From Candidatus Heimdallarchaeota archaeon (GTDB taxonomy: Archaea; Asgardarchaeota; Heimdallarchaeia; Hodarchaeales; Hodarchaeaceae): a DNA stretch of 64,000 nt. Positions 2,826 through 38,534 of this stretch are shown in pieces. Position numbers and translations under genes: made by a program. The notes under the pieces are model-generated. The model had not been told where the DNA came from, made no database searches, and worked only from the letters and a program-made list of their open reading frames with translations. Within the stretch, counting starts at the first letter, position 1. Each line of letters starts with the position of its first letter. The DNA lies in assembly GCA_020353515.1 (NCBI GenBank), contig CP070695.1:2674155-2738154 (forward strand). Reading direction: 5' to 3'.

Positions 2826-2984
2826 TGCCGAGGGTGCGATTTGAACGCACGACAACTGGATATCCATCTCACAGATGAACTGGAGACTTCAGTCCAGCGC
2901 TAACGGGATTTGATACCATTATAAAATGGTGATACTCCCGGGATTCTCATTTACTCATTAAAGTAAACTCTAAGCTACCTCGGC
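2826..2984 (-). tRNA. tRNA-Phe(GAA) with 3 introns (15/16: 2943-2969; 22/23: 2902-2934; 37/38: 2862-2886)
   Basis: Removing three hairpin inserts gives a 74-nt cloverleaf GCCGAGG...CTGGA CTGAAGA TCCAG...GTGCG TTCAAAT CGCAC CCTCGGC A. Confidence 0.88.
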
Positions 2985-3583: not shown

Positions 3584-3723
3584 TGCTCCGACCGGGATTT
3601 TCCAACCACAAACAGTGTGTTTGGGTTCTTTGAACCCGGGTCCTTCCGCTTAGATTCAATATTGAATTCAGCCAGATTCGGGGCGAAAGCCCGGAATGAT
3701 GGGCCGAGCTACACTATCGGAGC
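3584..3723 (-). tRNA. tRNA-Glu(TTC) with 2 non-canonical introns (~44/45: 3643-3676; 59/60: 3598-3628)
   Basis: The 5' end and T/acceptor arms match the tRNA-Glu(CTC) at 15342; anticodon arm CCGGG CTTTCGC CCCGA; two hairpin inserts. Confidence 0.82.
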
Positions 3724-10437: not shown

Positions 10438-10599
10438 GCGGGGGTAGCCAAGCTAGGTCAAAGGCGGCATTAAATGGGCTAGATGATAGTTTAGCATATC
10501 ATAAATTAATGCGCTGTCCAAAGGCGCTGGACTTAAGATCGCTTTTGATAAGCAATCCAGTCATATAGATGTACGAGGGTTCAAATCCCTTCCCCCGCA
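10438..10599 (+). tRNA. tRNA-Leu(TAA) with 2 introns (21/22: 10462-10521; 37/38: 10538-10554)
   Basis: GCGGGGG acceptor, CTGGA CTTAAG|A TCCAG anticodon arm, long variable arm; BHB central helices GGTC/GTCC and CTTA/TAAG. Confidence 0.9.
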
Positions 10600-14632: not shown

Positions 14633-14737
14633 CGGGCACAGAGGGATTTGAACCCCCGACCAACAGGTATCTTCAGTCAAATTCTTAAAATATGAACATT
14701 AAAAGCCTGTCGCTCTACCTGGCTGAGCTATGCGCCC
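14633..14737 (-). tRNA. tRNA-Lys(TTT), canonical 37/38 intron (14669-14699)
   Basis: GGGCGCA...ACAGG CTTTTA|A CCTGT; BHB helix CTTT/GAAG. Confidence 0.93.
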
Positions 14738-14746
14738 TTAGGTTTC

Positions 14747-14854
14747 TGGCGCCCCGGTCGGGATTTGAACCCGAGTCGGATGGGTTCGGCAGACTATCAG
14801 AGTTGATAAGGCTTTGACAGCCATCAATGCTAGGCCAGACTACACCACCGGGGC
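14747..14854 (-). tRNA. tRNA-Asp(GTC), 37/38 intron (14785-14814), CCA encoded
   Basis: GCCCCGG...GATGG CTGTCA|C CCATC...CCGGGGC G CCA. Confidence 0.93.
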
Positions 14855-15041
14855 TAGATACCAAGTGAAGGTCTTAATTACCTTAGCGATAAATAAGCGT
14901 CCACGTCTGTCCCTTCTTTCTCAATTTTTTAAATTGATCCTCTCTTAAAGAAGTTCCTGCATAACCTTAAAATCCTAGAGCCATTGCAAGGAAAATTGCC
15001 GAATACCCCTTCGTGTAAGGTGATTACCCCTAATTATATGT

Positions 15042-15262
15042 GCTGGGGTGGCTTAAACGATAATAATCATTTTATCGTGGCGAAGCCTGGTATAATCATA
15101 CTGTCTATAGTCAGAATGCCGAGAGCGCGGGACTCATAATCTGAGAACAATTCTCATAGCGTTCTAAGGGCACGAATCTCGCTTTCAGACGAGACATCCC
15201 GAAGTCGGGGGTTCGAATTTAGGTAAAATGCATTTTATCAAACGAAAAGCCCCCCCCCAGCA
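15042..15262 (+). tRNA. Elongator tRNA-Met(CAT) with 4 introns (14/15: 15056-15084; 21/22: 15095-15122; 37/38: 15139-15195; 59/60: 15218-15248)
   Basis: Removing four hairpin inserts gives a 76-nt cloverleaf GCTGGGG TG GCTT AGCCTGGTATA GAGC G CGGGA CTCATAA TCCCG AAGTC GGGGG TTCGAA(G/T) CCCCC CCCCAGC A. Confidence 0.88.
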
Positions 15263-15341: not shown

Positions 15342-15448
15342 GCTCCGATAGTGTAGCTCGGCCCATCATTCAGGGCTCTCAATGAAAGTCTATTAATCAG
15401 ATTTTCAGGAGCTCCCCTGTGACCCGGGTTCAAATCCCGGTCGGAGCA
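15342..15448 (+). tRNA. tRNA-Glu(CTC), 37/38 intron (15382-15413)
   Basis: CAGGG CTCTCA|C CCCTG; BHB CTCT/GGAG with intron stem TGAAAGTCT/AGATTTTCA. Confidence 0.93.
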
Positions 15449-20210: not shown

Positions 20211-20346
20211 AGGGACGTGGCTTAGTTTGGAAAAGTTCCCGGTTCGGGTCCGTAAGCCGATTTCGGCTGGCGGCGTAACTCCGGGAGATCGGGGGTTCAA
20301 AGTTATTACGGCTGTGCGCCGTGTTATGAAAATCCCTCCGTCCCTA
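20211..20346 (+). tRNA. tRNA-Pro(CGG) with 2 introns (37/38: 20249-20279; 59/60: 20302-20332)
   Basis: AGGGACG/CGTCCCT acceptor, CCCGG TTCGGG|T CCGGG anticodon arm; T-loop BHB TTCA/TGAA. Confidence 0.9.
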
Positions 20347-38397: not shown

Positions 38398-38534
38398 GCC
38401 GAGGTAGCCAAGCTCGGATTAAGGCGCTAGACTCGAGTTACTATTTCATCATCCGAGATATCTAGTGTGCTTTGCACGCGTGGGTTCAAACATCACAGAA
38501 GTGAGTTCTCTGATTGGAAGTCCCACCCTCGGCG
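38398..38534 (+). tRNA. tRNA-Ser(CGA) with 2 introns (37/38: 38438-38459; 59/60: 38491-38520)
   Basis: CTAGA CTCGAG|A TCTAG, variable arm GTGC TTT GCAC, G73; BHB helices CTCG/CGAG and TTCA/TGGA. Confidence 0.92.

Follow-up and report, generated by a model that had tools for sequence, protein, structure and literature searches.

A tRNA(CAU) gene with four introns and a micro-exon in a Hodarchaeales archaeon, probably encoding the elongator tRNA-Met

A 221-nt locus in the genome of a Hodarchaeales archaeon (4.94 Mb, single contig, 35.8% G+C) encodes a tRNA(CAU) whose cloverleaf appears only once four inserts have been removed. It occupies positions 15042-15262 (+) of the window, i.e., the whole 64,000-nt stretch of DNA that was analysed, and the D-loop contains two of its inserts, the others being at 37/38 and, in the T-loop, at 59/60. 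We consider it very probable that the gene is functional and encodes the elongator tRNA-Met(CAU), for which it is probably the genome's sole gene; the splicing endonuclease EndA would excise four introns from its transcript, and the ligase RtcB would join the exons into a product of 74 nt (or 76 nt).

The exon-intron anatomy can be read directly along the plus strand. Exon 1 (15042..15055) provides the 5' strand of the acceptor stem, positions 8-9, the 5' strand of the D-stem and A14 (tRNA positions 1-14), and is followed by the 29-nt intron 1 (15056..15084) at site 14/15 in the D-loop. Exon 2 is a micro-exon holding the D-loop residues G18 and G19; it spans 15085..15093 (9 nt) in the reading we favour and runs to 15094 (10 nt) in the register of the preliminary description of this DNA. 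Intron 2, also in the D-loop near 20/22, is favoured at 30 nt (15094..15123), the alternative being 28 nt (15095-15122). Exon 3 (15124..15138) comprises the 3' strand of the D-stem, position 26, the 5' strand of the anticodon stem and the loop as far as A37, including the anticodon CAT, and is separated by the 57-nt intron 3 (15139..15195), at the canonical 37/38 site, from exon 4 (15196..15217), which extends from position 38 through the 3' strand of the anticodon stem, the variable loop and the 5' strand of the T-stem to position 59 of the T-loop. The 31-nt intron 4 (15218..15248) interrupts the T-loop at 59/60, and exon 5 (15249..15262) supplies G60, the 3' strands of the T-stem and acceptor stem, and the discriminator A73; CCA is not encoded at the 3' end. 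Introns make up 145-147 of the 221 nt, in agreement with the earlier estimate of about two-thirds. All five exons are colinear on one strand inside 221 nt, and the gene is therefore neither split nor permuted. Any ORF that overlaps the locus is at most 55 aa long. We also considered whether intron 3 (57 nt) might contain a box C/D guide RNA and ruled this out, as there is no TGATGA box.

When 15042-55, 15085-94, 15123-38, 15196-217 and 15249-62 are joined, the resulting 76 nt are drawn by ARAGORN as tRNA-Met(cat) with all four arms, i.e., a 7-bp acceptor stem GCTGGGG/CCCCAGC, a D arm, the anticodon stem CGGGA/TCCCG with U33 and A37, and the T stem GGGGG/CCCCC with the T-loop TTCGAAG. The 74-nt form, in which intron 2 is 30 nt, is likewise drawn as tRNA-Met(cat). 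This cloverleaf, along with orthologues that possess the same exons, bears out the five exons and four inserts originally proposed at these places. The unspliced locus is missed by ARAGORN with and without its intron mode, and by the Rfam tRNA model (RF00005) both at the gathering score and at E<=10, just as had been anticipated for standard scanners. The same model scores a one-intron orthologue at 50.6 bits and a two-intron orthologue at 40.7 bits, against a cut-off of 29. Since two standard scanners miss such genes, automated annotation could make this genome appear to lack an elongator tRNA-Met.

Splice motifs were judged against a bulge-helix-bulge (BHB) criterion, which asks for a central helix of 4 bp between two 3-nt bulges, with one or more flanking helices. 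The four central helices named in the preliminary description (GCT/GGC, GGTA/TGCC, CTC/GAG and TTCG/CGAA) are all present with 3-nt bulges. Introns 2 and 4 have canonical motifs (4/4 central pairs and a flanking helix), while those of introns 1 and 3 are relaxed (3/4 central pairs and flanking helices). The motif of intron 4 is a strict hBHBh', with TTCG/CGAA paired 4/4, the 5-bp T-stem as outer helix h and an inner hairpin h' of 2 bp. Intron 3 has an hBHBh'-like motif, its central helix CTC/GAG containing one mismatch (3/4), flanked by the anticodon stem as h (5 bp) and an h' of 7 bp. Intron 1 has a relaxed HBh' motif with 3/4 central pairs, no outer helix h and an inner hairpin h' of 7 bp. 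For two introns, the case rests on comparative data and not on the motif.

These comparative data come from a BLAST search of the locus against 40 relatives, which returned orthologues in 16 genomes of the same genus; furthermore, an exact-pattern scan for the conserved junction of exon 3 and intron 3 matched 16 contigs. The orthologues carry one, two, three or four of the same inserts, and each insert is precisely present or absent. Loci of 221 or 220 nt have all four (eight genomes), those of 188 and 185 nt have inserts 1, 3 and 4, that of 165 nt has inserts 1 and 3, those of 161 and 160 nt have inserts 2 and 3, and that of 130 nt has insert 3 only. Two of the junctions can be read off alleles that lack the intron. 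Where intron 1 is absent (G005, G016, G001 and G006), the sequence reads GGCTTA|GCCTGG, which is exactly the predicted junction, and in the seven congeners that lack intron 4 it reads TTCAAA|[G/T/C]CCCC, the junction predicted from BHB geometry. The latter alleles also show that G60, regarded as unusual in the preliminary description, is not so, because position 60 is G, T or C in congeners without the T-loop intron.

In 17 species-level genomes with only 48-78% identity between their TiaS proteins, the exons are nearly invariant, and exon 1 is the same in 17/17. The few changes in stems are all compensatory. Within the introns, the hairpin of intron 1 has compensatory changes in five of its seven pairs, and in the central helix of intron 4 the pair between exon position 57 and its intron partner is G-C in five genomes, A-U in four and G-U in one; this exon-intron pair is, in our reading, the most telling covariation. 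We wrote one nested structure for the precursor, consisting of the acceptor, anticodon and T stems together with both the central and the inner helix of each of the four introns. In this structure 95.1% of cells pair, compared to 43-50% when partners are slid by 1-3 columns, and 13 pairs have changed on both sides, compared to 5.5 ± 1.3 in shuffles (0/500). The double-sided changes include compensatory ones in the anticodon and T stems and the exon-intron pair of the intron 4 central helix. Counting against the structure, RNAalifold favours an alternative helix, GGCTT/AAGCC, which would bury the 3' site of intron 1.

A sceptical reading would be that the locus is decaying or non-functional, or that one D-loop insert is retained, with the real elongator tRNA-Met elsewhere. 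The two relaxed motifs, with 3/4 central pairs, and the masking of part of the genome lend themselves to such a reading, but we regard it as highly improbable: the exons have stayed nearly invariant in 17 genomes, stems vary by compensatory pairs only, the intron hairpins show covariation, our scan of the genome outside long ORFs gave no other elongator candidate, and a promoter-like box is conserved upstream.

The boundaries of intron 2 are less easily settled than those of its neighbours, as two overlapping registers each give 4/4 central pairs in this genome. In the 30-nt register (15094-15123) the central helix is TGGT/GCCG, with two G-U pairs, and the bulges are AT|A and AG|A; in the 28-nt register (15095-15122) it is GGTA/TGCC, with bulges TA|A and GA|G. 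Six congeners without intron 2 read GCCTGGTATAGCG, a sequence that is obtained from the 30-nt register only and is shorter by exactly 30 nt. For introns 1 and 4 the excised length equals the inserted length, i.e., their motif registers reproduce the intron-less alleles exactly. For these reasons the 30-nt register is moderately favoured, and exon 2 would consequently be 9 nt and the mature tRNA 74 nt. Across the 11 genomes that bear intron 2, the central helix of the 30-nt register is complete (4/4) in nine, while that of the 28-nt register falls to 3/4 pairs in six. A T-to-G difference peculiar to this genome at 15123 falls in the intron bulge under the 30-nt register.

The 28-nt alternative nevertheless keeps an appreciable, if smaller, share of the probability. 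It gives an exon 2 of 10 nt, a mature tRNA of 76 nt, a D-loop of 11 nt and G at position 22, and implies that the D-loop is 2 nt (TA) longer in species bearing intron 2 than in those without it. In its favour, the motif is more stable, having an outer helix h of 2 bp in all 11 intron-bearing genomes and more Watson-Crick pairs; G22 would form a D-stem GCTT/GAGC that resembles the GAGC of outgroup orthologues; and the 76-nt form is accepted by ARAGORN. The earlier assignment of a 28-nt intron at 21/22 was thus right about the insert itself and about a micro-exon of 9-10 nt, whereas its 28-nt boundaries, and with them an exon 2 of exactly 10 nt, are the less likely of the two.

As an anticodon CAU may belong to an initiator, an elongator tRNA-Met or a tRNA-Ile2, the identity of the gene was assessed against the other CAU genes of the genome. 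We used our own multi-intron tRNA finder, which combines helix seeds with a BHB test, and, as a loose CAU scan returned too many false positives, a stricter ad hoc one (5-bp anticodon stem, intron allowed at 37/38 only, outside long ORFs, with 11,231 genome bases masked). The stricter scan recovered three credible CAU genes, namely the initiator, the four-intron gene and a two-intron gene. The genome encodes TiaS, and therefore an Ile2 tRNA is needed and three CAU tRNAs are expected. The initiator gene (C1 4003217-4003314 (-)) has A1-U72 and the anticodon-stem pairs GGG/CCC; these marks are absent from the four-intron gene, which has G1-C72 in place of A1-U72, and A31-U39 where the initiator has three G-C pairs at 29-31:39-41. 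The third gene (C1 2823463-2823590 (+)) lies just upstream of a tRNA-Asn gene, contains a D-loop intron and a 21-nt canonical intron, has one T-stem mismatch, and is missed by ARAGORN and Infernal.

This two-intron gene and the genome's tRNA-Ile(GAU) share GGGCC/GGCCC, C4-G69 and C29-G41, and the last two pairs are minor Ile determinants in E. coli (PMC9976931). The four-intron gene, unlike both, has G4-C69 and G29-C41. Going by these identity rules, we are fairly confident that the four-intron gene is elongator tRNA-Met and the two-intron gene Ile2; the call draws on identity rules from bacteria and on resemblance to the tRNA-Ile encoded in the same genome, and the literature that we searched yielded no archaeal TiaS or IleRS determinants for tRNA-Ile2. 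The converse assignment, in which the four-intron gene would be tRNA-Ile2(CAU), a TiaS substrate reading AUA, and the two-intron gene elongator tRNA-Met, seems improbable to us. The anticodon CAT and the loop CTCATAA suit both, TiaS is present, the D-arm GGCTTAGCCTGG is common to the four-intron gene and tRNA-Ile(GAU), and a four-intron CAT gene of Freyarchaeia carries an Ile2 label (PMC11291895, Supplementary Data 4). However, Arg tRNAs have the same D-arm, the acceptor stem GCTGGGG/CCCCAGC is unlike the GGGCCCA of tRNA-Ile(GAU) whereas the other CAU gene starts GGGCC, and C4-G69 and C29-G41, present in both of these, are lacking.

Accepting the four-intron gene as elongator tRNA-Met, it would probably be the sole one of the genome. 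Looking for another had been put forward as a check, and no further candidate was found by the ad hoc CAU scan outside long ORFs, with 11,231 bases masked. No paralogue of either the spliced sequence or tRNA-Ile(GAU) was found by BLAST against the genome; short matches at 2531090, 3478174, 3354580, 527580 and 175855 are not tRNAs. A separate observation concerns an uninterrupted tRNA-Ile(TAT) (G000:C1:387279-387351 (-)), which scores 61 bits with Rfam and has an acceptor stem with two or three mismatches by eye. Since the genome also has TiaS and an Ile2-like CAU tRNA, this gene may be of foreign (mobile element) origin.

The four-intron gene is located among other tRNA genes. Upstream, on the opposite strand, are tRNA-Lys(TTT) (14633-14737 (-); Rfam tRNA 58.1 bits) and tRNA-Asp(GTC) (14750-14854 (-); 43.3 bits), both also found by ARAGORN and each with one intron. 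Downstream, 79 nt away and on the same strand, is the one-intron tRNA-Glu(CTC) (15342..15448 (+); Rfam 46 bits). In most of the orthologue loci for which we read the downstream flank, it likewise comes after the Met gene, and the two genes may be co-transcribed. A conserved TATA-like box, CCTTAAAATCC, precedes the mature 5' end by about 70 nt (14965..14975 (+)), and CCTTAAAAT or CTTTTAAT occurs at the same distance within the upstream 90 nt of 16/16 orthologues. Judged by this conservation, the box is a probable promoter, which would imply a 5' leader of about 40-45 nt to be removed by RNase P. Another sequence, TAATTATAT, just upstream of the gene, was discarded as a promoter, being too near the mature 5' end and, unlike the box near -70, not conserved. 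In the eight closest congeners the 90 nt upstream (window 14952-15041 (+)) are conserved well beyond the TATA-like box, including TGCAAGGAAAATTGC, which suggests a structured 5' leader.

Elsewhere in the genome introns are common but seldom so numerous. A rough census combining our own finder, ARAGORN and Infernal gave about 50 tRNA genes with about one intron each; in it the Met gene is the only one with four introns, and three genes (Phe, Trp and Ser-TGA) have three. Of these, tRNA-Phe(GAA) lies in the window (2826-2984 (-)), with three inserts of about 23, 36 and 25 nt by our own finder, and is missed by ARAGORN and Infernal. The window also holds two-intron genes for Glu(TTC) (3584-3723 (-)), Leu(TAA) (10438-10599 (+)), Pro(CGG) (20211-20346 (+)) and Ser(CGA) (38398-38534 (+)), among which Leu(TAA) is miscalled by the intron mode of ARAGORN as tRNA-Lys(ttt) with a 70-nt intron. 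Beyond the window, a tRNA-Thr(TGT) gene (G000:C1:about 4009380-4009520 (-)) has an apparent T-loop intron but is readable only in part, as its 5' end lies inside a masked run of N.

Genes for the enzymes that splicing would require are present. Two proteins with the tRNA_int_endo domain (PF01974) are encoded, of 183 aa and 212 aa. The 183-aa protein (PF01974 and PF02778) is an EndA alpha subunit most similar to the catalytic alpha subunits found in the heterotetrameric enzymes of Aeropyrum pernix, Sulfolobus tokodaii and Pyrobaculum, its best solved relative being the A. pernix catalytic subunit 3p1z_B (E 1.9e-43). The alignment with 3p1z_B is ungapped through the Crenarchaea-specific loop, where Lys stands at the positions of both K44 and R46; this specificity loop and K44 confer cleavage of D-loop sites and relaxed motifs in A. 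pernix (PMC3241643). The 212-aa paralogue is closest to the three-unit enzyme of ARMAN-2, matches the Nanoarchaeum beta subunit NEQ261 as well, has Ile in place of the catalytic His of alpha and lacks four loop residues. Taken together, the pair looks like an alpha2beta2-type enzyme of broad specificity. An RtcB ligase is also encoded (PF01139, 540 bits).

The pathway that we propose is as follows. The gene would be transcribed as a precursor of at least 221 nt, and the four introns would be excised at their BHB motifs by the archaeal splicing endonuclease, here a heteromeric alpha/beta EndA bearing, as in A. pernix, a Crenarchaea-type loop on its catalytic subunit. Such a loop would explain the tolerance of two D-loop introns and one T-loop intron. 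RtcB would ligate the five exons into a tRNA of 74 nt, or of 76 nt with a 28-nt intron 2, and CCA would be added to it afterwards. The preliminary description held that ordered splicing was needed. However, the four motifs lie in separate local domains and all fit one nested fold, in which they form simultaneously; as the motifs can coexist and none is masked by another intron, folding would impose no order of splicing. A constraint of a different kind may apply to the micro-exon. If both of its neighbouring introns were cut before either junction was ligated, exon 2 (9-10 nt) would be held by only about 2 bp, and for this reason the two D-loop introns are expected to be cut and ligated one after the other. 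We infer that their cut-and-ligate cycles do not overlap in time.

The orthologues also allow the history of the introns to be considered. The eight genomes with four introns group as a single clade in a TiaS tree (support 96/96); the TiaS matches of three congeners, L049 (G008), L055 (G014) and L059 (G021), have one in-frame stop each (TGA, TAA and TGA, respectively). All orthologues have intron 3, and so do the outgroups. For introns 1 and 2, and likewise for introns 2 and 4, all four combinations of presence and absence are seen, which calls for a minimum of one additional gain or loss. Among the outgroup orthologues, which belong to other families, that of G022 has only the 37/38 intron, that of G023 has the 37/38 intron with a T-loop intron at 59/60, and that of G024 has the 37/38 intron with a T-loop intron. 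None of these three has a D-loop intron, and for that reason the D-loop introns look like gains within the genus. The outgroup orthologue L041 (G022:C54) is also distinct in having the T-loop ATCGAAG, with A at position 54, and an encoded 3' CCA; the genus of the window has neither. No other genomic copy of any of the four introns was found by BLAST against the genome, and nothing therefore suggests that they were copied from one tRNA gene to another or belong to a mobile element.

At the intron 2 site, the insert of G016 and G001 matches that of this genome at 18 of 30 positions, compared to 13.6 ± 2.3 in shuffles. One scenario, which we put forward as speculative and rather unlikely, is that one essential tRNA gene has, inside a single Hodarchaeales genus, gained and lost introns repeatedly at fixed sites, and that two barely similar 30-nt inserts occupy the D-loop site of intron 2. 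Were the thermodynamically better 28-nt register to be used, every arrival would have left behind a duplicated TA of 2 nt; if true, this footprint would point to a staggered-cut insertion mechanism for archaeal tRNA introns.

If the gene is what we take it to be, the translation of every internal AUG in this organism would hinge on eight endonuclease cuts and four ligations, including the capture of an exon of 9-10 nt. The main value of the locus, in our view, is the series of congeners with one, two, three and four introns, a comparative set for dating intron gains that would also serve for testing EndA motif registers and for seeking footprints of intron arrival. The findings extend four-intron tRNA genes to the Hodarchaeales, a lineage often placed closest to eukaryotes.

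Genes interrupted at comparable places occur in the nucleus of the red alga Cyanidioschyzon merolae (PMC3728597), whose disrupted tRNA genes have introns in the D-arm, at 37/38 and in the T-loop, with a maximum of three, and RT-PCR showed that the outer introns are removed before the canonical one. That system differs in being eukaryotic, in its endonuclease complex and in that some of its genes are permuted. The multi-intron genes of Thermoproteales (Sugahara et al. 2007/2008; PMC8450103) also have BHB and relaxed BHB introns at many positions and a heteromeric alpha2beta2 EndA with the Crenarchaea-specific loop, and scanners must strip their introns iteratively. They belong to another phylum, have two or three introns per gene and, in some cases, an intron that masks another (PMC8450103), which is not seen here.

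Older work speaks of "two or three introns" per gene (PMC8450103), and the preliminary description had given three as the maximum; this figure is superseded by records of four (PMC11291895) and up to five (10.64898/2026.10.13.758758). Four-intron tRNA genes are rare, yet already listed for other Asgard classes. Valentin-Alvarado et al. 2024 (PMC11291895, Supplementary Data 4) record them in Atabeyarchaeia and Freyarchaeia, where the coordinates indicate micro-exons of 8-9 nt; the genes concerned are Arg-TCT, Ile2-CAT and Leu-GAG in Freya, and Trp and Lys-TTT in Atabeya-2. According to a recent preprint (Goswami et al. 2026, 10.64898/2026.10.13.758758), a single gene can have as many as five intervening sequences in those families, whereas several Heimdallarchaeia lineages have fewer than one per gene. 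The gene described here resembles those of Atabeyarchaeia and Freyarchaeia in its Asgard host and in having four BHB-type introns, placed in the D-loop, in the T-loop and at 37/38; there, too, micro-exons of 8-9 nt occur, introns are missed by standard annotators and repeated gains have been inferred. It differs in that its host is one of the Hodarchaeales (Heimdallarchaeia) with about one intron per gene, in that it is the sole four-intron gene of its genome by our rough census, and in that here the same gene is found with one, two, three and four introns among congeners.
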